This document shows positions 10,963 through 42,199 of a stretch of 64,000 nt of DNA, piece by piece. The DNA lies in contig CAZMPQ010000001.1 of NCBI GenBank assembly GCA_964568535.1, forward strand, positions 6,183 through 70,182. Direction: 5' to 3'. The position numbers and the translations under genes were made by a program. Source of the stretch: an uncultured Candidatus Saccharibacteria bacterium. Lineage in GTDB: Bacteria; Patescibacteriota; Minisyncoccia; UBA6257; 2-01-FULL-56-20. Position 1 is the stretch's first letter. Each line of letters begins with the position of its first letter. The notes below the pieces were generated by a model. The model was given only the letters and a program-made list of their open reading frames with translations, had not been told where the DNA came from and did not search any database.

Positions 10963-11664
10963 TCAGAGCGTCGTCCGGAGCACGTGATACGCCTCTGCGA
11001 GCGTTCCGCCCATCTCCTTGCCATATATGCGCGCCAGGCGCTCCATATTCTCTACGCTCCGGGGAAACGGGTCTTTCCGCACCTGTGTCGTGTGGCAATG
11101 ATAAAGCTGTACTTTGAAATCCAACAAGTTGCCTTTTCCAAATTTTTCGCTCAGATCCAGATACGCGTTCGGCGTCCGCTGAGGACGGGAGCTCCAGGTA
11201 TACGGCTCAAAATATTCCAGCACGTGGTCCACGAAATGCCGCGCGGAGCGCGGAGTTGGCCGAAGTGCAGCTATGCATGCGTCGAACGTCGCGCGATGGT
11301 CCTGATTATAGCTGGACGACGCCGGCACAGCCATTATGGTGGGACGGAACTCCTCCAAGAGGTCGTCTAGGCGCTCCACGATGTCTTTCTGCGGGATAGC
11401 GTCGAGCTTTACATGGTCTTTCTGCACATACAGCACGCGCACATCCGCGCCCGTGAGCTTCTTTACCGCTTCAACCTCCTTCAAACGATCGGCTCCGCGC
11501 GTCTTCCCGGTAACAAGCTGACGGCTGTCGCCTACCCCCATGTAGAGGATAAGTACTTTTCCGCCCTCCTTCTTTACTTTGCCGATAAGCCCGCCGACGC
11601 CATCTGCTTCATCGTCAGGATGCGGAGCGACCACGAGAAGCCGCGCTGTGCGATCAATATGCAT
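10963..11664 (-). CDS. PIG-L/LmbE-family N-acetylglucosaminyl deacetylase
   Basis: Carries LLVVAPHPDDEADGVGG (the PIG-L zinc motif). I chose the start at M29; the longest ORF extends to 11748. Confidence 0.7.
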   Translation of the reverse strand: MHIDRTARLLVVAPHPDDEADGVGGLIGKVKKEGGKVLILYMGVGDSRQLVTGKTRGADRLKEVEAVKKLTGADVRVLYVQKDHVKLDAIPQKDIVERLDDLLEEFRPTIMAVPASSSYNQDHRATFDACIAALRPTPRSARHFVDHVLEYFEPYTWSSRPQRTPNAYLDLSEKFGKGNLLDFKVQLYHCHTTQVRKDPFPRSVENMERLARIYGKEMGGTLAEAYHVLRTTL

Positions 11665-23156: not shown

Positions 23157-24202
23157 GCCGTGTGGTTCCCTGAAGATCGCAGGTGTCCGAGCATTTGCTG
23201 GGCACGATGGCGCCAGGTGTGGTGTTGCAGCACGTACTCGCGGACACGTGCCGCGCGCTTTGCACGCTCCGCGTCCATTCCCGGCGCGAGCCAATGGTCC
23301 AGAAGCGGATGTATCTCTTTTGCCGAGCTGAACGTCACGAGCGAATCCTTCGGGAAGAGGAGGTCGTGGTCCGCGCGATGGTCCACGAGCTGAAACAGCC
23401 CTGCAAGCGCGACCTCAAAGGTCCGCGCGGATACGGAGGTGAAGTGCCACGTCGAATGGATGTTGAGGAATAGTTTCGTCTTTGCATACAACTCGTTCAG
23501 CGCCGCCGTGCTCAACCGCCCGCTTTGGACAACGCGCTGTTTGAGCCCCGGGAAGTAGCGGTGCCAATACTCCAGCCCTGTGCCGCAGACGGCAACACGG
23601 TATTTTTCAGGAATGTCGGCGAGTATCTTTGCGCGCAGATAGCCGTCCCCGCTCTGCGGCGGCAAGCTGCCGGCGAAGACGATGTCGTATTCCTTTTTCG
23701 GCTCCGGCGAGAGCGGATGGAATACTTTGGGGTCGCCAGCAAGCGGGAGGTGCACCGCATCTTGCTCGCCGTAGAGGATGGTCATCCAGGACGGGAATCG
23801 GTCTATCGTGAACACCCGGTCCACGTACGCGAGCGCCGCGAGGGCGTCCTTTGCCTGCGCGCCTGCGGCGGGAGAATCCATCCAGTAGAAGATGGGTTTC
23901 TTGAGCTCTCGCGCTTCGCGGACCGCCTCGGGCAGGATGTTCGGCGCGTGTTCCAAAACAATGAGGTCCGGCTTCGCGTCGCGGACGCTCTGGAGCCAGT
24001 CGCGGCTCACTGCCCTGCGAAACACGTCTTCCGCGCCATACTGCACCTTCGGAATGCGCGTGCCGATACGCTGTATCCATCGCTGGGTCTTCGTGCCGTT
24101 ATCGTTGAAAAACGAGACGCTGTGCCCAAGCTCGCGCAGGGCATCGCCGAAGAACGCGCCGAATCCCCCATGCCAAACCGGCGTCGTATAGTGTATCTTC
24201 AT
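23153..24202 (-). CDS. CgeB-like glycosyltransferase (paralog of the 2818..3873 gene)
   Basis: Carries FEVALAGLFQLVDH...DAERAKRAARVREYVLQHHTWRHR. Confidence 0.6.
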   Translation of the reverse strand: MKIHYTTPVWHGGFGAFFGDALRELGHSVSFFNDNGTKTQRWIQRIGTRIPKVQYGAEDVFRRAVSRDWLQSVRDAKPDLIVLEHAPNILPEAVREARELKKPIFYWMDSPAAGAQAKDALAALAYVDRVFTIDRFPSWMTILYGEQDAVHLPLAGDPKVFHPLSPEPKKEYDIVFAGSLPPQSGDGYLRAKILADIPEKYRVAVCGTGLEYWHRYFPGLKQRVVQSGRLSTAALNELYAKTKLFLNIHSTWHFTSVSARTFEVALAGLFQLVDHRADHDLLFPKDSLVTFSSAKEIHPLLDHWLAPGMDAERAKRAARVREYVLQHHTWRHRAQQMLGHLRSSGNHTA

Positions 24203-24267
24203 GCACAGACAGGATAATCCAACTCTCGCCCGAATGGAACCCGTGCGCGAATTGCTGCGTGAATAGA

Positions 24268-24302
24268 CCCCGAGCGGCGTGCTACGAGCACGCCGCTCGG
24301 GG
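24268..24302. terminator. perfect 16-bp inverted repeat with a 3-nt loop (CCCCGAGCGGCGTGCT-ACG-AGCACGCCGCTCGGGG)
   Basis: Read directly from the sequence. It lies between the end of the surface-protein operon and the start of the CgeB-like gene. There is no strong T-tract, so it is either a stem-loop terminator or an RNA stability element. Confidence 0.4.
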
Positions 24303-24319
24303 CGTTTACCGTATCGCTC

Positions 24320-24397
24320 TTACTGGGACGTAGAACTCGGAGCTGGAGCCGAAGGAGTTGAGGTAACGTGGATGGGAGGTGGAAGGGGTGGTAGTCC
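24320..24397 (-). pseudogene. relic 3' end of a third small-partner gene (it encodes ...GLPPLPPPIHVTSTPSAPAPSSTSQ*)
   Basis: The minus-strand translation matches the C-terminal tail of the 26134..27117 protein (PPPPPPIHVTSTPPAPAQSSTSQ*). No corresponding N-terminal or central domain lies upstream of it. Confidence 0.55.
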
Positions 24398-24404
24398 CTC
24401 TTTA

Positions 24405-24752
24405 TTAGAATAAAGTCGGGTGAGCAAACATTTGAGAGGCACCATACATAAAAAAAGCTGTCGATACGAATACCCCCAAAGAAAAGAAGAGAAAAGAAAA
24501 GAAGAGAAAAGAAGAGCCCAATCTTCTTAGCTGTTCTCGAAATCGCTTTATGAAGAAGTTCACCAAGAAAAATGGTAAAGAAAAAACACTGATGATTTCC
24601 AAGATTAGTGAATAAATGTTTTCAAATGGAAAGAGCGCCTTTGGCAAGCTTGGGAATACATCTAACGAATAGGGAATCGTAAAAACTAACAATCCGACTA
24701 CTATGCCACCTAAAAGATTTCCGACATAAAACAAATTTAACTTTTTTTTCAT
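24405..24752 (-). CDS. hypothetical small Phe-rich membrane protein in a low-GC (~30%) patch
   Basis: A 115-aa ORF with three or four hydrophobic segments. It begins MKKKLNLFYVGNLLGGIVVGLL, similar to the partner-protein signal anchors. The local GC content is far below the window average. Confidence 0.35.
   Translation of the reverse strand: MKKKLNLFYVGNLLGGIVVGLLVFTIPYSLDVFPSLPKALFPFENIYSLILEIISVFSLPFFLVNFFIKRFREQLRRLGSSFLFFSFLFFSLGVFVSTAFFMYGASQMFAHPTLF
24481..24516. repeat. simple purine-rich repeat, roughly (GAAAAGAAGA)x3.5
   Basis: The sequence reads gaaaagaagagaaaagaaaagaagagaaaagaagag. Confidence 0.6.
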
Positions 24753-24781
24753 GAATTTTTGATATTATTAACAAGATTATA

Positions 24782-26137
24782 TCACCATTTGATTATCCCT
24801 TTAATTCTATAAGGGTCGAAGATGGGGTTTAGCTTAGAACTCCAAAGCATTTCAAAATCGCTTATATCTTGGGTACCCAAGTCAGTCTTGGGCGATACAA
24901 GACCGCAAGTGCTAGTGGAATTATCCATAATATTATTTCCTGTACTATGCGCCAGACCGAGTGCGTGCCCAAGCTCATGCGTAATAGTGCATTGTTTCAT
25001 TGAATTCGTATAAGGATCCATATAGTAAGTATTGAAAAGGATATGAGGTTGGTTTGGTGTGGTTGTAGGAACCCATAATCCTGCTTTTCCCATCCATTGA
25101 CCAACGGTCGAGCTGACGACGTCTACATATATATCCCAATCTGAACCAGATGTAGAGGTTGATTTCTTGAGATTCACATAGCTTGCAGTCGCGTCATTCC
25201 AAGTAATGATTGCGTTTAACATTTGCGCATCATATGGCGTAGAACTGCCTATTCTCATGATATATGGCGATGTGCTTGTATTGACGCCCGGCGGCGACCA
25301 CTCGGTATTGTCAGGACGTGACAAGAACGCCGTGTAATAATTGTCCGCATCAATATAGTCAGAAATCTTCGCACCTGTTCCTGAAGCGTTCTGCGTGGCA
25401 TGCCAGGGTCCGGCGTTCTCCGTAGAACTGTTGGCATCATCCAGCGGATACCACCCACCCCAGAAGTTCAATCTCATTGTGGAGGTCGGACTGCCAGTCT
25501 TCCAAGCACTGCTTGTGCTGTTGTTGTATATCGTGCTCGACGCCACCGTCACCGTCCCGCCGGTAATATACAGGCCGTAATCGTTATCGTGTATCGCTGA
25601 TTCCGTTACCGTCGTCGCGCCTCCCGTGCTGTATATCCCGTAGTCCGAAGCATAGGAGATGTCGGTATATCTCGTATTGAGCGTGCCGCCAGTAACGTAC
25701 ACGGTACTGCCTGCTGTGTTTCCGCCGTATCTCACGACGGTTCCTGCGAGAGTCGTGCTCGCGCCGGAGGTAATTTGAATATTTCCCCAATCCCCTGCGG
25801 CTCCCGTTGAAGTTCCATCTCCATTCAGATCCCCTCCCACGCTGTCGTCTTTGAAGGAGGTGAAATATACGAGGGTAGGGCTCAGTGCTCCTCCTTTCAC
25901 ATCAAGCTCTCCGTTCACGATGAGGGAGGTAGATGGTTTGAACTTGATGATGGTGCCGGGTTCAATGGTGATAGTCTTGCCTGCATTGATGGTGACGGTT
26001 GAGGAGACGATATATGGGCCTTCGGCTTTGGACCAGGTGGTGGAGGTTGCGATGGAGCCGGAGAGGGTGCTGGATGGCTTCGCCACGAGTGGTATGCATA
26101 CAAGCATACCACTTTGTTCTATGCGCTCACAGCTCAC
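24782..26137 (-). CDS. secreted parallel beta-helix plus metzincin zinc-metallopeptidase domain protein (a truncated paralog of the 1058-aa protein, lacking the LamG domains)
   Basis: It is about 85-95% identical to the C-terminal ~440 aa of the 27152..30328 gene product. It carries HELGHALGLAHS. An ATGA overlap couples it to the upstream partner gene. Confidence 0.6.
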   Translation of the reverse strand: MSCERIEQSGMLVCIPLVAKPSSTLSGSIATSTTWSKAEGPYIVSSTVTINAGKTITIEPGTIIKFKPSTSLIVNGELDVKGGALSPTLVYFTSFKDDSVGGDLNGDGTSTGAAGDWGNIQITSGASTTLAGTVVRYGGNTAGSTVYVTGGTLNTRYTDISYASDYGIYSTGGATTVTESAIHDNDYGLYITGGTVTVASSTIYNNSTSSAWKTGSPTSTMRLNFWGGWYPLDDANSSTENAGPWHATQNASGTGAKISDYIDADNYYTAFLSRPDNTEWSPPGVNTSTSPYIMRIGSSTPYDAQMLNAIITWNDATASYVNLKKSTSTSGSDWDIYVDVVSSTVGQWMGKAGLWVPTTTPNQPHILFNTYYMDPYTNSMKQCTITHELGHALGLAHSTGNNIMDNSTSTCGLVSPKTDLGTQDISDFEMLWSSKLNPIFDPYRIKGIIKW

Positions 26138-27117
26138 TGACTGGTTGATGACTGAGCAGGTGCTGGAGGCGTTGAGGTAACGTGGATAGGAGGCGGAGGG
26201 GGCGGAGTTGGTGGTTGGGGTGGAGGCGGATAAAATGGGGCGCAGTCGGGGTCTTGGGCGTCGGTGAGGTTGTCGAGGTCGTTGTCTTTGTTGTCACGAC
26301 AATTCACCTGATGGTCCTCTCGATAATATGGCCGGCAGTTGGGGTCGCCCTGATCGACAAGTCTATCTCCGTCATTATCTATGCCGTCGCGACAACTACT
26401 CCCTGAAGTTTCTGTTGTATCTTGTGGTAGTGGCGGTGGCGGCAATGTCTCTGGCACAGGACGGGGAGGTATGAGTTCAGCAAATTTATTGTGGACTGCC
26501 TGTTTCTCAGCTTGGGAGAGCGACTGGAATAAATTAGCGGCAGATTCGCCTGTTGTGCGTCCGTCAAATGGTATCTCATTCGGATACGCATTGAGTAGTT
26601 CGTATGTCCGCGCGTGTCGTAAAACGAGTTCTCTTAATTGCTCCTTACTCAAGTTGGCGTGCTCACTCACTACGGTCTTAGTCGCCGGATGAAAACCTAC
26701 AAAATACCATGGGCCAGCTTCATCGGGGAGATGAGTAGCTCCAAACAGATACGTTGTGCCGGGTGCAAGTTTATCCCCTTTTGTAGAATCCAAGCTCACA
26801 ACAATCCTATCCTCGGCAATACCTTTGATATTGTAAATAACCTCAACGTCATATTGTGTTCTTGATAAACCCAGTGAGTTATCGCTTCTTCCTGCTTCTG
26901 CAAGCACCTTGCCGGCAAATACATTTTGGTAATAACCAACCAACCTGCGGTTGTTATTGAAGTCAGTTGCCCACGTCGCGGCAATGCCGGATTCTCCCAT
27001 GTTCTTTACGCCTGAGTCAGTTGGTGTCTGAAAACCAACCTGCTGTACACCCCTCATCCCGAGATAGATTGCACCGAAAATCAAGATACTTCCAACGATA
27101 AATAGTCGTTTCTTCAT
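26134..27117 (-). CDS. secreted partner protein: signal anchor, a conserved domain of unknown function, two Cys-bracketed Asp-rich (TSP3-like calcium-binding) repeats, and a poly-proline C-terminal tail
   Basis: Starts MKKRLFIVGSILIFGAIYLG. Carries CRDGIDNDGDRLVDQGDPNC and CRDNKDNDLDNLTDAQDPDC, and ends PPPPQPPTPPPPPPIHVTSTPPAPAQSSTSQ. It is a paralog of the 38053..39054 gene. Confidence 0.6.
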   Translation of the reverse strand: MKKRLFIVGSILIFGAIYLGMRGVQQVGFQTPTDSGVKNMGESGIAATWATDFNNNRRLVGYYQNVFAGKVLAEAGRSDNSLGLSRTQYDVEVIYNIKGIAEDRIVVSLDSTKGDKLAPGTTYLFGATHLPDEAGPWYFVGFHPATKTVVSEHANLSKEQLRELVLRHARTYELLNAYPNEIPFDGRTTGESAANLFQSLSQAEKQAVHNKFAELIPPRPVPETLPPPPLPQDTTETSGSSCRDGIDNDGDRLVDQGDPNCRPYYREDHQVNCRDNKDNDLDNLTDAQDPDCAPFYPPPPQPPTPPPPPPIHVTSTPPAPAQSSTSQ

Positions 27118-27151
27118 GGTGATGGTTAATTATGTGATGACCCTATGGAAC

Positions 27152-30100
27152 TTATTGCCATTGAATGATGTTTTTCAATCGGTGCGGATCGAAAATAGGG
27201 TGCAGAGCGGGGGTCCAAAGCAATCGAAAATCGCTTATGTCTTGGGCACTTAGATTGGTCTGCGACGATCCTATCTGGCACGTCTGGTCCATTAAGTTGC
27301 CTTCCGGACTATGCGCCAATCCCAAAGCATGCCCGAGCTCGTGGGTGGTTACGCACTGCTTATTCATCTCGACGCCCATTCGCGCGGTATTGAAGTAAAT
27401 GTGAGCGATGCTAGTTGAAGACGGGATATAAAACCATGCCCAACCTCGAGGAACATAAAGCCCGGCCCAATCCAGTGTAGAACTCGTAATATCTGCCGCG
27501 GCCACATCCCACTGCGAGTTCGGGTACGAACTTGCCTTCTCTAAGTTAATATAACCTACGGTTGTATCATTCCAAGTATCAATGCCATCCTCCAATTGCG
27601 TCTGATATTGAGTAGAACTGCCCACCCGCATCACGTATGTTGATGTATTAGTGTAAACAGCTAACGGCGACCAAGTGTTAACATTAGGATGAGACAAATA
27701 CGCGGTGTAGTAATTGTCCGCGTCTATGTAATCGGATATTTTCGCTCCAGTCCCACTAGTATTCTGCGTAGCGTGCCACGGTCCAGCATTTTCCGTCGAG
27801 GTGTTCTTTTCGCTTGAGCCATCATAAGTATCGTCGAGCGGATACCATCCACCCCAGAAGTTCCATTTCATTGTGGAGGTCGGGCTGCCGGTTTTCCAAG
27901 CACTGCTTGTCGCGTTGTTATATATCGTGCTCGATGCCACCGTCACCGTCCCACCGGTAATATACAGACCGTAATCGTTGTCATGTATCGCTGATTCCGT
28001 TACCGTCGTTGCCCCTCCTGTGCTGTATATGCCGTAGTCCGAGGAGTAGGAGATATCGGTATATCGGGCGTTCAGCGTGCCTCCAGTCACGTAGATGGTA
28101 CTACTTGCAGTGCTTCCACCATAGCGGACAACGCTTCCTGCGATGGTAGTACTCGCCCCCGAGTTGATTTGGATATGCCCCCAATCCCCTGCCACCGGCG
28201 CTGTCGCTCCTCCGTCTCCATTCGTATCCCCACCCACACTGTCATCCTTGTATGACGTGAAATATACGAGCGTGGAGCTCAGTGCTCCTCCCTGCACATC
28301 AAGCTCTCCGTTCACGATGAGGGAGGTAGAGGGTTTGAACTTGATGATGGTGCCGGGTTCAATGGTGATAGTCTTGCCTGCATTGATGGTGACGGTTGAG
28401 GAGACGATATATGGGCCTTCGGCTTTGGACCAGGTGGTGCTGGTTGCGATGGTACCGGAGAGGAGGCCTCCGCAGCCGGAGGATTGGGCGCAGACGCGCC
28501 TGCCCTGACTACTGTTCCAGAGCTTCGTCACTTCGCCTGCGGTCAATGCGCGGTTCAGGACCACCACCTCGTCAATCATAGCAGAGATCTTTCCGTAACC
28601 GCCGCCTGAGGGGTAGCCGCCGTGGGCGCCGATGCCGGTGCCGGTGTCTACCGCCGAGGTGCCGTTCCCGGAGCCAGCGGCTGCCTCGGCCTTGAGGTCG
28701 TTCTGCACATAGAGGCGGAGGCTCGTGCCGTCGAAGGTGCAGGCGACGTGGTACCAGGTGGAAGTTGCGAGGCCGTTCCCGCCATTCGTCCAGGAGGCGG
28801 TCTCGTTCGCGGCGCCCCAGCGATTCCGTTGGCAATAAAGTGTCCTCGTGCTCCCGCCGGTATATTCAATGCCGTAGGCAACATCAGTGCCGCTGTCCAC
28901 GACGGAGACGATTTCCTGGTCTCCGGAGGCGATGCTGGCGAACTTGACCCAGGCCGCGAGAGACATGGCGCCCCCGGAGATACCGAGATTCTCCGACGCG
29001 TAAAGATACTTCGTCGTGTTGTCCGTCCCGAAGTCCGCGGCAGTGCCGAGCACGCCGGTTCCCGTTGCGGCGGGGCCGTAGTTCGTCAGGGTGTAGTGAT
29101 TGCCGCTCGCGTCGGCGGCGAAGTGATGGTCAGTATGGTAGAGCGCTCGGATCGCGCCGTCGGTGATCTGGAGATACGGCGATGGGTCCGTTTCCACCGT
29201 GAAATCAAATACATCCGCCGTCCCGAATTGCGTCCAGGAGGATGTGGCGAAAGTCACAGTGTCCTGCGCCCGCGCGCGCCAGTACCAGGACCCGGGCGTG
29301 ATAGAGGAAACGGTCGTTGACGCCTGTGCGCCAGGCGCGACTGGGGAGCTTGTCTGCGTCATTGGGCCGGCGAACGAGGTGCTCGTTGCGAGCTCCACCT
29401 GGACTATGAGCTGGTTCGTGGATGAGGAGTTCGGGATAGCCTTGAGCACGACGCTCGTCTCCGCCGTCGTTGCTCCTTCGGCGAGCGAGGTCGTACCGTT
29501 AGACTTGAACTGGAGGAGATCGCCGATGCTCGGCGGCGTGGACGACGTGCAGCCTACCGTAACGCAAATCGTATCCCCCGAACCGCTGTTCCAGAGCGCA
29601 TTGCGAGTAGAGGTGGAGATGCGGGTGTTCATGAAAAAGAGCTCATCGATATGGAAGTCACCGAGTGCAGCCGCGTTGCATACGGGATTCACGTTCGCCG
29701 AGCGGCCGTTCACGCAGATATCCGTCGTGAAGTTCGTCGTGTCACTGTCGCTCCCCGAGGTCACGATGGTGTTGTTCACATACCACTCTACCGAGCTTCC
29801 CGTACGGGTCAGGAGATGCCACTGCCAAGCGCCGACTGGCGGGCTGGAGGTGGTGTATTGCATCTCGCAGGGCGGCGTACCGTCCACGAACTCCAGGACG
29901 CCTGCGGCACAGGCCTGCGCACGGCTTATCTGTTCGATGCTGTCAGCTCCCGCACTACGGCGGCTGATCACGGCATCATCGTCCAGGGTCGCTTGTGCAT
30001 TAATCCAGAAACCGATGCTGAAATCACTGGAGAGGTCCATAGCGCTGGACGAGGCTCGGAACCAGCCGGTTCCCTGAGTGTCGCCGGCGTTGCCGAACCA

Positions 30101-30328
30101 ACCGGTCACGTAGGCGGTGCCGCTTGCGGTGAGGTTCCTACCGTTTCCTGAGGAATCGCTTGCATCCTCAAAGTGGTAGAGGGCGGTGACGGAGCTTGAG
30201 GGGATGTATACAGTGGCGGAGGCGGGGTGGGGGAAGAAAAACGCCGCCAAGATGGCGACGGTAGGGACGGCGAGGACAGCGGCGGACGTTATTCCACCGA
30301 ACGGAACGACCCTGGCGTTCCTGAACAT
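27152..30328 (-). CDS. very large secreted surface protein: signal peptide, two LamG_3 (concanavalin A-like) domains, an Ig/FN3-like region, a parallel beta-helix and a C-terminal metzincin (M10-like) catalytic domain
   Basis: Starts MFRNARVVP followed by a hydrophobic helix. The LamG_3 domain ends are ALYHFEDASDSSGNG...IDELFFMNTRISTSTRNALWNSG and ALYHTDHHFAADASGNH...IDEVVVLNRALTAGEVTKLWNSS. The beta-helix repeats include TGGATTVTESAIHDNDYGLYITGG. The zinc motif is THELGHALGLAHS, and the conserved C-terminus is FDPHRLKNIIQWQ. Confidence 0.75.
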   Translation of the reverse strand: MFRNARVVPFGGITSAAVLAVPTVAILAAFFFPHPASATVYIPSSSVTALYHFEDASDSSGNGRNLTASGTAYVTGWFGNAGDTQGTGWFRASSSAMDLSSDFSIGFWINAQATLDDDAVISRRSAGADSIEQISRAQACAAGVLEFVDGTPPCEMQYTTSSPPVGAWQWHLLTRTGSSVEWYVNNTIVTSGSDSDTTNFTTDICVNGRSANVNPVCNAAALGDFHIDELFFMNTRISTSTRNALWNSGSGDTICVTVGCTSSTPPSIGDLLQFKSNGTTSLAEGATTAETSVVLKAIPNSSSTNQLIVQVELATSTSFAGPMTQTSSPVAPGAQASTTVSSITPGSWYWRARAQDTVTFATSSWTQFGTADVFDFTVETDPSPYLQITDGAIRALYHTDHHFAADASGNHYTLTNYGPAATGTGVLGTAADFGTDNTTKYLYASENLGISGGAMSLAAWVKFASIASGDQEIVSVVDSGTDVAYGIEYTGGSTRTLYCQRNRWGAANETASWTNGGNGLATSTWYHVACTFDGTSLRLYVQNDLKAEAAAGSGNGTSAVDTGTGIGAHGGYPSGGGYGKISAMIDEVVVLNRALTAGEVTKLWNSSQGRRVCAQSSGCGGLLSGTIATSTTWSKAEGPYIVSSTVTINAGKTITIEPGTIIKFKPSTSLIVNGELDVQGGALSSTLVYFTSYKDDSVGGDTNGDGGATAPVAGDWGHIQINSGASTTIAGSVVRYGGSTASSTIYVTGGTLNARYTDISYSSDYGIYSTGGATTVTESAIHDNDYGLYITGGTVTVASSTIYNNATSSAWKTGSPTSTMKWNFWGGWYPLDDTYDGSSEKNTSTENAGPWHATQNTSGTGAKISDYIDADNYYTAYLSHPNVNTWSPLAVYTNTSTYVMRVGSSTQYQTQLEDGIDTWNDTTVGYINLEKASSYPNSQWDVAAADITSSTLDWAGLYVPRGWAWFYIPSSTSIAHIYFNTARMGVEMNKQCVTTHELGHALGLAHSPEGNLMDQTCQIGSSQTNLSAQDISDFRLLWTPALHPIFDPHRLKNIIQWQ

Positions 30329-37826: not shown

Positions 37827-38052
37827 CTATTCCCCTTCTTCAGGCCCAGAGCCGCCGAAGAGCTTGCGAACGCCGGCAGTGAGCCGGAAAAAACGCGCGA
37901 GCGCCATCTGCCACAGCGAACTCCCCGCGCCGGGGTCAATGTACCCCAGGGCTTTCAATTGCTCTACAACTTCGTCACGTGAGGGATCTTGTTCGTCAGC
38001 CACGCGATGATGGTAGCAGAGGAAATGGAGGGTGTAAACGCTGACACGCCAA

Positions 38053-39054
38053 TTACTGCCCGGTTGAGGTCGGAGCCGGTGCCGGAGGCGTTGAAGTGGG
38101 CGCAGTAGGAGATGGCGCGAAGTTCTCCGGTGGGAGTGGAGCGGAAGGCGGAGGAGGTGGGGGTTGTGGCGGATAGAATTGGGCGCAGTCGGGGTCGGCG
38201 GAGTCGGTGAAACCGTCGCGATCGTTGTCGATGTTGTCTCCACAAAGGGCTGGGAGGTCTTCTCGGAGAGCCCCACCACAGTCGGGATCTGCTTTATCAA
38301 TTAGCCCATCTTTGTCGTTATCTTCTTTATCACCGCAACGACTCCAAGAATTCTCAGGTATACTATCGCGGCTTGTAGAAATGGGAGGCAAAATCTCCGG
38401 CACCGGGCGTGGAGGTATCAACTCCTGGAATTTGTCGTACACTGCTCGCTTGTTCGCTTCAAAAAGGGATTGGAAAGAGTTTATCGTCCGGCCCTTTTGA
38501 ATATCAATATCTCTCAATATCTCGTTCGGATATGCGTTGAGTAATTCATACGTCCTTGAGTGTTTTTTTACAATGTCGGTCAGTTCTTCGTTTGTAAGAC
38601 GCGAACTCTGGCTTATGGACACATGGAAGGCGTTCGGGGAACCAACGTAATACCACGGTTCTGTTTCGGCCCAGTGACGAGCGGCAAGGATATACGTGTT
38701 GCCCGGGACAAGTCGAGCGCCCTCAAATGCTTCTATATCAACTTGTATCCTACCACTCGCAGTGCCTTTGATGTTGTAAAGAACTTCTACTTCGTACTGA
38801 TAATGTGCAAGCTGACTACCTCCAGGGAGTGTTTGAGGATTGTTTCCTCTCTCTGCGAGGACTTTCGCCGCAAAGACCTCTTGGGCGTAGCCCACTAAGA
38901 CGCGCGGATTGTCGTAGTTGATTGCGTATGAAGCTGCGGGGCTAGAATTTTCTTCGTTTTGCCCATTATCAAGGGGTAATTCAGAGTTCACGGCGACATA
39001 GAAACCAACGATAACTGCTACACTGCTTACGATGATGGCTAGTTGCCTTTTCAT
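38053..39054 (-). CDS. secreted partner protein (paralog of the 26134..27117 gene): signal anchor, a conserved domain, two Cys-bracketed Asp-rich repeats and a poly-proline tail
   Basis: Starts MKRQLAIIVSSVAVIVGFYVA. Carries RTYELLNAYPNEI, CGDKEDNDKDGLIDKADPDC and CGDNIDNDRDGFTDSADPDC, and ends PPQPPPPPPSAPLPP...TPPAPAPTSTGQ. Confidence 0.6.
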   Translation of the reverse strand: MKRQLAIIVSSVAVIVGFYVAVNSELPLDNGQNEENSSPAASYAINYDNPRVLVGYAQEVFAAKVLAERGNNPQTLPGGSQLAHYQYEVEVLYNIKGTASGRIQVDIEAFEGARLVPGNTYILAARHWAETEPWYYVGSPNAFHVSISQSSRLTNEELTDIVKKHSRTYELLNAYPNEILRDIDIQKGRTINSFQSLFEANKRAVYDKFQELIPPRPVPEILPPISTSRDSIPENSWSRCGDKEDNDKDGLIDKADPDCGGALREDLPALCGDNIDNDRDGFTDSADPDCAQFYPPQPPPPPPSAPLPPENFAPSPTAPTSTPPAPAPTSTGQ

Positions 39055-39079
39055 TGCATTGTTTAATGTGTTAGGGACC

Positions 39080-42000
39080 TTACCATTGAATGACGTGCTT
39101 CATCCGGTGTGGGTCAAAGAAGTAAGACGGGCTCCAGAGAAGATTGAAATTGAATAAATCTAAAATGCCTAATGTTGTTTGGGGCTCAAGAATTCCTGGG
39201 AAGTAATCGCATGAATGACGCGCCATAATACTATCCCCGTATTCAGTGTGCGATAAACCTAACGCATGACCAATCTCATGGGTTGCAACACATTGTTGCG
39301 AGTCTGAGTAAGAATTCATTCCATTTGTGTTGAATATAATGTGAGCGGTACTCGTAACAAATGGATACCACAATCCCGCCCACGATGAGGTGTCTACTGT
39401 GATATCAGCCACGTATATATCCCAGGTATCACTCGATGACGCACTTGCATTGACGACCATCACATAGCCCGATGACGAAGCGTTCCATGTGCTCATACCA
39501 TCAATAAGTTCTGATTGGTATTGCGTAGAGCTTCCCACTCTCATTTTCAGAGTACTAGAATTCACTCCAGGCGGAGACCATGTTGACTCACTAGGACTCG
39601 CAATAAATGCACTCATGTATGGACTAATGTCAATGTAATCCGATACGTCATCACCTGCTCCTGATGGGTTTTGACCAGAATGGTAAGGTCCTGCGTTGTC
39701 GGTAGATGTAGAGATATCATCAAGCGGAAACCATCCTCCCCAGAAGTTGTTGGTCATCGTAGATGTCGGCCCCGATGCATCGTGGAGCGCACCGTAGCCT
39801 GCAGTCGCATTGCTGAAGACGGTACTTGAAGACATCGTCACATTGTTGCCGCTCGTAACTCTTACGCCGTTGTAGTTGTCGTGTATTGAGGCGTATATGA
39901 TAGTCGTTGTTCCGGCCGTAAGGTACAAACCGTGCGTTTCTGCATAGGAGACATCGCTGTTTCTGATGTTCAGCACTCCCCCGTTGTTGTAGATATTTGC
40001 ATCACTTGCCGCATCTCCTCCGCCATATCTGACAACGCTTCCCACAAGCGTACTGCTCGCACCTGTATTGAACTTGATATGTCCCCAGTCACCTACCGCC
40101 GGCTGCGTCGTACTGTTGTTTGTGTCCCCTCCTACCGCATCATCGTGATACGACGTGAAATATACCAAGGTTGAGCTCAGGGCTCCTCCCTTCACATCAA
40201 GCTCTCCGTTCACGATGAGGGAGGTATTGGGTTTGAACTTGATGACGGTGCCGGACGCTACGGTGATTTTCACGCCGGAGGCGATGGTAGCGGTACTTGT
40301 GACGATGTATGGGGAGAGGTTGTGGGTCCAGGTGGTGCTTGCGGTGATAGTGCCGGAGAGGAGGTTCGCCGTGCCGCACCCTGCCGTCGTACACACTTCC
40401 GCACCGCTTCCGCTGTTCCAGAGCGCATTCCGAGTACTCGTGGATATCCGCGACGTGGACAGGAATAGTTCGTCAATATGCCAGCTGTGCTTGTAGTCGG
40501 CGTTCAAGCCGTTCACCTGGAGATCGGTGGAGTAGTTCGTGGTTGCGCTGTCGGTGAACGAATGTTGGCGCACGTTGTCCACGTAATAATCAACGATCGA
40601 GCCGCTGCGAAGCACTGTTACCCAGTACCACGTGGATGTCGCGAGAGAATAGGAGAAGTTCCCCTTGCAAGTCCCGTTGTGCCTGAACTCAAAGTTGTTT
40701 CCCGCGCACTGGGCGCCATACATCACCGCGTCATTGCTTGTTCCGCCCGTCGTCCTGCCGACAAGGGAAGTGTCGTTCAGGGCTTCCATCGGCTTCATCC
40801 AGAACCCAATAGAGAAGTCCCCCGAAAGGTCCATAGCGGATGAGGACACTGTCCAATATCCGGAACCCTGCGTAATGCCTGCGGTTGATAGCTTGCCCTC
40901 GGTAGATCCTGTCCCCCACGACGTGAGGTGGCGCGCGTTCCCCGAGGCGTCGGACGTGTCCTCAAAATGATACAGGCCGACAACGTTTGAAACCTCTACC
41001 CGCGGATTGGGAACGGTCTCCACCACGACGTCCACCACATTGTCTGTGCCGAATTGTCGCCAAGAGGATGTGGCGTTCGTCGCGGTATCCAGCGCTCTCC
41101 CTCGCCAATACCAGAATCCATCGGGGATGGCCGAGATGGTTGTTGTGGCATACGAGCTCGGAGTCACTGCGGTGCTTGTGCCGTGAAGTGCGTTCGTGAA
41201 CGACGTGCTCGTAGAAAGCTCAACTTGAAGCATGAGGTTGTTTGACGATGAGGAGTTCAAAAAAGCTTTGAAGAATACCGTGCTCTCCGCCGTGGTCGCG
41301 CCCTCGCTCAATGGGGTCGTGCCATCAGCTTTGAACTGCGTTGTTGAGGAGATGACGGGGATAGAGGAGGTCGCACATCCTAGTGTAGCGCATATCTCCG
41401 CCCCACTACCACTTGCCCAGAGCGCATCTTTCGTGCTCGTCGTGATGCGAGCGTTCATGAAAAAGAGTTCGTCCATAAGATAGGCGTGGTTGTACGATGA
41501 GCAACCGCCACCCGAGAGACCAAGGGCGCCGATACAGAGGTCGCTGCTGATATTTCCCGTCTCGCTGTCGGTGAACGGGAATACTACGCTGTTGTTCACA
41601 TAATAATCGGTGTTCGTTCCCGTTCGGGCGATGAGGAACCAGTACCAGGTGTTCGTCGAGAGCGTGTATGCCGAAGTATGGCACGTGTTGTTGTGCTTGA
41701 ACTCAACGTGGCTCCCCGCGCATGTATTCCCATAATACACGCCTTCGCGGGAAGAACCGGATATCCGATCAATGAACGGCGTGTCGTTCAGAGATACCTG
41801 TGGGTATATCCAGAATCCGATAGTGAAGTCGCCCGACAGATCCATAACTGATGACGATGCCCGGAGGAATGCGCCGCTCGCGAAGTTTGCCGCATTGGAC
41901 AGCGTACCAGTTGTGAACGTGGTCCCGGAAGCGTTTACGAGGTCGTGTCGGTTCGCCGATGACGTAACGGAGTCTGTCAGGTTCTCCATGTGGTAGAGGG

Positions 42001-42139
42001 CGGTGATGTTGGGGACGTACACGGCGGCGGAGGCGAAGCTTGGAAACAAAAACGCCACCAGAGTGGCGGCGAGGAACGCGGTGGAGAGAGCAACAAGCGT
42101 TGTTCTTTGTGACGGAACGACCCTGGCGTTCCTGAACAT
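39080..42139 (-). CDS. very large secreted surface protein with the same LamG, LamG, Ig/FN3-like, beta-helix and metzincin architecture (paralog of the 27152..30328 gene)
   Basis: I chose the start at the conserved MFRNARVVP; the ORF extends to 42199 across the poly-G tract. Carries ALYHMENLTDSVTSSANRHDL...MDELFFMNARITTSTKDALWASG, ATHEIGHALGLSH, DSIMARH (the Met-turn) and FDPHRMKHVIQW. Confidence 0.75.
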   Translation of the reverse strand: MFRNARVVPSQRTTLVALSTAFLAATLVAFLFPSFASAAVYVPNITALYHMENLTDSVTSSANRHDLVNASGTTFTTGTLSNAANFASGAFLRASSSVMDLSGDFTIGFWIYPQVSLNDTPFIDRISGSSREGVYYGNTCAGSHVEFKHNNTCHTSAYTLSTNTWYWFLIARTGTNTDYYVNNSVVFPFTDSETGNISSDLCIGALGLSGGGCSSYNHAYLMDELFFMNARITTSTKDALWASGSGAEICATLGCATSSIPVISSTTQFKADGTTPLSEGATTAESTVFFKAFLNSSSSNNLMLQVELSTSTSFTNALHGTSTAVTPSSYATTTISAIPDGFWYWRGRALDTATNATSSWRQFGTDNVVDVVVETVPNPRVEVSNVVGLYHFEDTSDASGNARHLTSWGTGSTEGKLSTAGITQGSGYWTVSSSAMDLSGDFSIGFWMKPMEALNDTSLVGRTTGGTSNDAVMYGAQCAGNNFEFRHNGTCKGNFSYSLATSTWYWVTVLRSGSIVDYYVDNVRQHSFTDSATTNYSTDLQVNGLNADYKHSWHIDELFLSTSRISTSTRNALWNSGSGAEVCTTAGCGTANLLSGTITASTTWTHNLSPYIVTSTATIASGVKITVASGTVIKFKPNTSLIVNGELDVKGGALSSTLVYFTSYHDDAVGGDTNNSTTQPAVGDWGHIKFNTGASSTLVGSVVRYGGGDAASDANIYNNGGVLNIRNSDVSYAETHGLYLTAGTTTIIYASIHDNYNGVRVTSGNNVTMSSSTVFSNATAGYGALHDASGPTSTMTNNFWGGWFPLDDISTSTDNAGPYHSGQNPSGAGDDVSDYIDISPYMSAFIASPSESTWSPPGVNSSTLKMRVGSSTQYQSELIDGMSTWNASSSGYVMVVNASASSSDTWDIYVADITVDTSSWAGLWYPFVTSTAHIIFNTNGMNSYSDSQQCVATHEIGHALGLSHTEYGDSIMARHSCDYFPGILEPQTTLGILDLFNFNLLWSPSYFFDPHRMKHVIQW

Positions 42140-42165
42140 GATGATTGAACGATACCACGGAGGAA

Positions 42166-42177
42166 CCCCCCCCCCCC
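42166..42177. repeat. homopolymeric tract, C12 on the plus strand (G12 on the coding strand), 26 nt upstream of the conserved start of the 1039-aa gene
   Basis: Read directly. On the coding strand the context is GTGCGGGGGGGGGGGGTTCCTCCGTGGTATCGTTCAATCATCATG. With 12 G the tract is in frame with an upstream ATG at 42199. Confidence 0.8.
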
Positions 42178-42199
42178 GCACAAGCGGGGATGTGCACAA

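Follow-up and report, generated by a model that had tools for sequence, protein, structure and literature searches.

A predicted intact gene for a rare small membrane protein lies between a putative orphan metzincin cassette and the remnant tail of a partner gene

We provide evidence that the AT-rich segment at 24400-24780 of the window (the whole 64-kb stretch of DNA that was analysed) carries a 115-aa open reading frame (ORF) that is intact and complete and belongs to a rare, conserved family of small membrane proteins. The short partner-like reading frame next to it, here called the relic tail, is a genuine remnant of a gene of the 330-aa partner type. The original prediction saw here a third partner gene disrupted by foreign AT-rich DNA: the tail indeed reads as a true partner remnant, but the low-GC DNA turned out to be an intact family gene and not foreign or degraded filler. 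Leaving the functional step aside, we regard the structural and evolutionary account of the locus given below as probably correct.

Results

Layout and base composition of the locus

Every gene of the locus is on the minus strand, and the order is metzincin B, partner B, metzincin C, the 115-aa ORF, the relic tail and a hairpin (Table 1). Pfam recognizes Laminin_G_3 and peptidase M10/M43 domains in metzincins A and B, the latter being composed of a signal anchor, two LamG_3 modules, a beta-helix and a metzincin domain. Partners A and B, which are 51% identical, gave no Pfam match. Their family is characterized by an anchor, a core with QYDVEVIYN and TYELLNAYPNE, two acidic double-disulfide repeats and a Pro/Ser/Thr-rich tail (...TSTPxAPAxSST(S/G)Q, then stop). 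The AF2 model of partner A+B has a pLDDT of 38, too low to be of use. A 330-aa partner follows metzincin homologues in L001 and L012 as well, and probably also in L013.

The Cys-rich acidic repeats of the partners (CxDxxDNDxDxxxDxxDPxC; 26134-26400 and 38053-38330) match NF033662 of NCBIfam (E 1e-12 for the two repeats of partner B) and, weakly, the teneurin Cys-rich domain in PDB (E 3e-4).

Table 1. Positions of the features at the two metzincin loci of the window
Feature	Position	Strand	Description
Metzincin A (pair A)	39080-42199	minus	1039 aa
Partner A (pair A)	38053-39054	minus	333 aa
Metzincin B	27152-30328	minus	1058 aa; main gene of the locus; full-length
Partner B	26134-27117	minus	327 aa; intact reference for the relic tail
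Hairpin after partner B stop	26087-26114	minus	11-pair stem (consensus scan); 10 pairs, z -3.8 (RNA fold)
Metzincin C	24782-26137	minus	451-aa ORF, directly after partner B; putative orphan 3' cassette
Spacer between metzincin C and small gene	24753-24784	minus	29-nt, AT-rich
Small membrane protein gene (predicted)	24405-24752	minus	115 aa, complete
Relic tail	24320-24391	minus	72 nt; frame differs from that of the 115-aa ORF
Hairpin 3' of relic tail	24267-24303	minus	17-bp perfect GC-rich stem

The mean GC content of the window is 56.5%, and not above 60% as first stated, but the claim of a low-GC stretch of ~380 bp was borne out: 24400-24780 has 33.1% GC, the window minimum, and the proposed sliding-window check finds 381-nt windows below 40% at this sole place in the 64 kb. 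GC at third codon positions (GC3) is 0.39 in the small ORF, close to the values of the metzincin C 3' part (0.42) and of the partners (0.45-0.49); housekeeping genes have 0.65-0.78. The low GC of the 115-aa gene is the sum of its Phe/Leu-rich composition and a low GC3 common to the local cassette genes; the extra drop is due to codon positions 1 and 2 (22 Phe, 19 Leu).

GC3 is 0.42-0.49 in the two partner genes and in the catalytic domains of the metzincins (24782-27800 and 38053-39700), whereas the sugar-metabolism and glycosyltransferase genes around them have 0.65-0.78. By composition the two metzincin loci are thus atypical inserts in a cluster of cell-envelope genes. A 157-aa ORF at 37827-38300, containing DEVVEQLKALGYIDPG, overlaps the tail of partner A in another frame and runs into the spacer before a sulfatase-like gene. 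It has no similarity to the metzincin cassettes in blastn and may be a fragment of something else.

The hairpin 3' of the relic tail has a folding energy of -41 kcal/mol (RNA fold, z -6.1), and none of 200 shuffles was as stable. No T-run follows it. The structure probably served the lost partner gene as terminator and now does so for the small gene.

The relic tail

On the minus strand, 24320-24391 encodes PPLPPPIHVTSTPSAPAPSSTSQ (23 codons and a TAA stop); the translation of 24320-24445 ends in GLPPLPPPIHVTSTPSAPAPSSTSQ, followed by a stop. A C-terminal tail of partner type without its body had been predicted, and this is what the proposed alignment to both intact partners returned. Within 24150-24850, tblastn aligned the tail with the end of partner B (its final 23 residues, 87% identity, E 5e-11) and, at E 4e-6, with the tail of partner A. 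Nothing else matched in this interval: with both partners as query the anchor, the QYDVEVIYN/TYELLNAYPNE core and the NF033662 repeats were absent. At the nucleotide level the tail is a direct repeat of 26133-26205 (74% identity), and the degenerate back-translation of PIHVTSTP has two matches in the window (24354 and 26168) against 0.03 expected.

Compared with the tail of partner B, 18 of the 69 nucleotides differ, at the cost of just three amino-acid changes (pN/pS 0.28) and including two complete switches of Ser codon family. When 18 changes were placed at random, 10.9 amino acids changed on average, and three or fewer changes were seen in none of the 20000 simulations (P < 1/20000). Given 18 nucleotide against three amino-acid differences, the tail therefore diverged while it was translated in its frame. 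The pattern points to protein-level selection on the tail until recently, and the gene body would have been lost recently relative to the divergence of the tail.

The 115-aa gene

Both the Phe-rich ORF and the purine-rich simple repeats of the original prediction are present. The ORF ends in HPTLF and a double in-frame stop (TAATAA), ~10 nt before the relic. It is complete and not fused to the tail, because its homologues share the C-terminal HPxFF stop. The repeat (24478-24513, purine-rich on the plus strand) consists of 2.4 copies of a 15-nt unit with 100% match or, alternatively, of 7.2 copies with period 5 (TRF). It is in frame, lies inside the third helix, encodes FLFFSFLFFS and, in the alignment, needs no indels to pair with the FxxFFSxG region of the homologues. 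The AF2 model, built from a six-sequence alignment, has three long helices (pLDDT 77). Foldseek found no match for this model in PDB (best E 5.6), and searches of the protein against Pfam, NCBIfam, PADLOC and PHROGs returned nothing meaningful.

A word-indexed protein search with the ORF gave no match, and its relatives came to light only when 1.84 billion representative proteins were searched exhaustively with HMMER. There were five, 94-119 aa long, with E-values from 2.5e-14 to 3e-5, and the closest of them (P0001) is 52% identical. A profile search of the family recovered four of the five (P0002-P0005) and no additional members, so the family is very rare. With the family profile a metagenome scan re-found, among the matches listed, only the L005 contig; scans of viral contigs with the small-family and metzincin profiles found nothing. 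The alignment has nine invariant columns (F24, P60, F61, F62, N65, F66, F71, F90 and G93), and the shared motifs are LPFFxxNF...FR and a C-terminal HP(T/N)(L/F)F right before the stop. GC is lower in the family gene than in its flanks on each of the contigs (0.36-0.42 against 0.40-0.57).

We also considered an insertion sequence or MITE as the origin of the low-GC segment. This candidate was rejected: the segment has neither terminal inverted repeats nor target duplications at its edges, it is present as a single copy in the window, and blastn gave no match in plasmids or phages.

The AT-rich spacer in front of the small gene contains an extended -10-like TGATATAAT at 24776-24784, which overlaps the TGA stop of metzincin C. 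For TGNTANAAT there are 4 matches in the window against 3.3 expected, a single site being not significant alone. Its distance to the ATG downstream is 6-23 nt when the window, L002, L003 and L005 are taken together, and 6-12 nt for the homologues in these three contigs. A promoter scan of the region did not rise above chance. We infer that TGATATAAT may be the promoter element of the small gene.

Relatives of the small gene and their neighbours

The genes of the family were seen in four independent contexts, mostly short contigs. L002 is too short to show what lies upstream, and P0001, from a 2293-bp contig (ENA ERZ27296333), comes without retrievable DNA. Upstream of P0003 (L003), at a distance of 32 nt, is the gene of a 1349-aa protein that combines Laminin_G_3 with an LCAT-type lipase domain; P0005 (L005-L010) starts 33 nt behind the gene of a LamG and lipase protein of at least 1071 aa. 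In these independent contigs the start-to-end offset is 31-33 nt (32 in L003, 33 in L005-L009), against the 29-nt spacer of the window. The soil metagenome contig L004 (1-3115) has, in this order, the end of an NHL-repeat gene, a 126-aa TM protein, a relic reading TPMMPTPTSTEEF and a stop, P0004 (20 nt after the relic), a 161-aa orphan and a 132-aa TM protein. The orphan is a fragment with 71% identity to the C-terminus of the upstream gene. Comparison of the small family with the other two TM proteins of this contig gave weak values in hhalign (E 0.057 and 0.09), so that kinship is suggestive at most.

The N-terminal 620 aa of metzincin B are homologous to the LamG-lipase exoprotein of L003 (E 8e-43), and both trunks contain, in the same order, an anchor, a LamG module, an Ig-like module, a second LamG module and Cys-containing linkers. 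Metzincins and LamG-lipases thus belong to one trunk family with different enzyme ends. As far as the contigs show, the usual slot of the small family lies directly behind the enzyme domain at the C-terminus of homologous modular exoproteins. P0003 and P0005 are 41% identical and their lipase exoproteins 68%, so the small protein evolves faster than the neighbouring exoprotein.

The original prediction had taken full-length homologues linked to metzincin genes elsewhere as the sign of a divergent third partner. Full-length homologues were found directly behind homologous LamG exoproteins, but these carry lipase or NHL ends and not metzincins. Outside the window, none of the homologues found follows a metzincin domain; the pairing with metzincin C is seen only here and could be a mismatch. 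A search with the catalytic domain of metzincin C did not recover the upstream neighbour of P0001, a 134-aa fragment. Since its product is also unrelated to the 330-aa partner, the small gene is an alternative occupant of the partner slot, and not a divergent third partner.

In L003 (1-11219) the exoprotein and small gene are flanked by genes for Replic_Relax (twice), HTH and DUF87/TrwB-like ATPase proteins, which suggests that the pair is carried on a plasmid-like or conjugative element.

Metzincin C as an orphan cassette

Metzincin C matches Peptidase_M43, M10 and Beta_helix in Pfam. Its HELGHALGLAHS catalytic domain is intact, as are the catalytic motif and the invariant Met, and the protein is without signal anchor, signal peptide and LamG trunk. 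Homology to metzincin B starts abruptly (26067 in C, 28464 in B), just after the GCGG linker of the trunk. At the protein level their beta-helix parts are 90% identical and their catalytic parts 59%. Synonymous differences follow the same gradient: pS is 0.03 over the first 40 codons, 0.35-0.64 over the rest of the beta-helix and 0.78-0.89 (saturated) over the catalytic domain, where the synonymous divergence between C and B is as large as that between A and B, while pN between C and B stays at 0.26.

These values fit an orphan 3' cassette, that is, an old paralogue whose 5' end would have been homogenised with the main gene. The idea of a recent tandem duplicate that subsequently decayed was discarded, given the saturated synonymous sites of the catalytic domain and the nearly identical 5' end. 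The GTG of metzincin C overlaps the stop of partner B (GTGA). This 'start' at 26137 is probably fortuitous, because the first 23 codons of the ORF are non-homologous and run through the hairpin that follows partner B.

A linker of the form ...STSTRxxLWNSGSGxxxCxxxGCG recurs after each LamG module in the metzincins of the window and in the L003 lipase protein; metzincin B has copies at 28465-28530 and 29540-29620 (residues ~238-262 and ~596-620 of the protein). Since the orphan metzincin C begins a few residues after the linker, it may mark module boundaries for recombination.

Discussion

How the tail lost its gene

Two histories would account for the relic, and we consider them about equally likely. 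In one, a small-gene unit of ~385 nt (from the stop of metzincin C to its own stop) would have displaced the body of a partner C. In the other, the small gene would be native behind metzincin C, and one deletion would have reached from just behind its stop into the partner tail of a further downstream cassette. The latter needs a single event and has a precedent in L001, a Candidatus Saccharibacteria MAG with a partner at 56% identity. After the stop of this partner, a scar at 11024-11082 consists of 39 nt of beta-helix region and 16 nt identical to the end of the partner A tail, and it reads LIVNGELDVRGTSSTGQ up to a stop. The 39-nt stretch is 82% identical to the genes of the window and has no match in L001's own gene. 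The scar looks like an orphan cassette that was almost wholly deleted; orphan cassettes that end in a partner gene, and deletions that end in its tail, therefore occur in the lineage. A single deletion of a further downstream cassette explains the tail as well as the 'replacement' of the original prediction. The same prediction called the locus a hotspot of rearrangement, and such proneness is supported by the orphan cassette, the mosaic identity and the deletion scar in a relative.

Other explanations of the junction

The strongest competitor is the originally predicted one, namely that the core of a third partner gene was overwritten or degraded by foreign AT-rich DNA, the ORF being incidental or a newly imported passenger. 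It has in its favour that the segment has the lowest GC in the window, that GC climbs sharply at the right junction, that no partner body lies upstream of the tail and that the segment has no other copy in the window. Nevertheless we deem it improbable: the ORF is intact with a start and stop typical of its family, family members occupy the same slot behind homologous exoproteins, and the low GC is intrinsic to the family, with a GC3 like that of the neighbouring cassette genes. Moreover, the search for a donor or other copies of 24400-24780 came back empty for the window, plasmids and phages (blastn) and viral contigs (small-family scan), and inverted repeats or target duplications do not flank the segment. 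An assembly chimera, in which a low-GC fragment of another organism was spliced into the contig, would likewise produce the abrupt GC change at ~24400, and the window probably comes from a metagenome-assembled genome, given that its only genomic relative is a MAG. A chimera is nevertheless hardly credible for a segment that is bounded within a few nucleotides by the stop of metzincin C and its own stop codon. Its 29-nt spacer resembles the spacing in independent contigs, and GC3 is continuous across the left junction.

A fusion of the three-helix protein to the tail, through a sequencing error or a programmed +1 shift at the T7 run (24450-24456), is very unlikely. The open stretch of the tail frame is 68 codons long and shares 41 nt with the end of the ORF, with the homopolymer inside this overlap, and the purifying selection on the tail would be in line with a fused product. 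However, the homologues and the unshifted ORF all end at the HPxFF position, the ORF being followed by the double stop; the shift required is +1, while the T TTT TTT site favours -1 and hence a different frame; and the 27 codons that precede the relic in the tail frame have no counterpart in the partners. Finally, the small ORF might be a strongly diverged and shortened homologue of the 330-aa partner and as such the true third partner. It has the same position after a metzincin gene, and both proteins begin with MKK and a hydrophobic stretch, which the original prediction took for a resemblance to the partner signal anchors. This resemblance did not hold up: the starts are merely generic, and blastp against both partners yields E-values of at least 3. 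With three membrane helices, as against one anchor, an ectodomain and Cys repeats, and with proteins of 113-119 aa as real relatives, we give this explanation next to no chance.

Likeness to polymorphic toxin loci

Orphan cdiA-CT/cdiI and rhs-CT/rhsI modules are known from polymorphic toxin loci (Poole et al. 2011, PMC3150448; Koskiniemi et al. 2014, PMC3967940), and orphan cdiA-CT and rhs-CT modules show a similar mosaic, with the 5' end homogenised with the main gene (PMC3150448). By analogy, the array described here would behave like such orphan C-terminal/immunity modules. In both, a full-length secreted protein and a small downstream gene are followed by a 3' fragment without the secretion part or credible start signals. 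High identity between the fragment (here metzincin C) and the main gene is confined to the region before the variable enzyme domain. A small ORF of its own follows the fragment, and relics and deletion scars lie nearby. The C-terminal domains also vary on a shared trunk, being metzincin in the window and lipase in L003 and L005. Recombination in the 5' end of the orphan, kept near-identical to the main gene, would swap the enzyme end together with the downstream gene.

The differences are substantial too. Pfam searches, in which Laminin_G_3, Beta_helix and peptidase domains were the sole matches, and inspection of the translations revealed no CdiB, no Rhs/YD repeats and no VENN or DPxGL motifs; because of this the locus is not a member of the CDI/Rhs class, and may only work alike. 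Its trunk consists of a signal anchor and LamG_3 modules, and a Cys linker (...SGSGxxxCxxxGCG) marks the junctions. The 'toxins' are predicted extracellular hydrolases whose toxicity is putative, and in place of a small cytoplasmic immunity protein the main partner is a 330-aa anchored protein.

Small multi-pass membrane immunity proteins protect against membrane-acting bacteriocins and effectors. The 115-aa protein resembles them in its size (~115 aa), its three hydrophobic helices, its position immediately downstream of a secreted effector domain and a faster evolution than that of the effector. Unlike them, it has no sequence or fold similarity to described families (Pfam, NCBIfam, PADLOC, PHROGs and PDB), and its family is tied to three unrelated enzyme types. 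Tentatively, and with low confidence, we suggest that the small protein, expressed from its own extended -10 promoter, might act as an immunity-like or accessory factor in the membrane of the producer for the secreted enzyme. The three enzyme types (lipase, NHL relic and metzincin) fit poorly with an immunity protein of specific binding and argue against a simple model of specific immunity.

The locus might belong to an undescribed polymorphic effector system of Saccharibacteria-like bacteria, with a LamG trunk and exchangeable ends; we hold this to be doubtful. The ends would be a metzincin, an LCAT-type lipase and possibly an NHL propeller, each then followed by a membrane partner, and orphan cassettes would be retained as material for recombination. 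In this system an immunity-like unit of ~385 nt, compact and self-promoted, would move between slots in the form of the 115-aa gene, and the relic tail would record one such displacement.

Conclusions

By itself, the junction of the relic and the small gene is a modest evolutionary footnote. If the orphan-cassette reading is true, tiny host-dependent bacteria would vary the secreted enzymes that they use on hosts or competitors, and polymorphic effector biology would extend to a little-known bacterial group. It would also provide a first context-based handle on an unannotated family of small membrane proteins.
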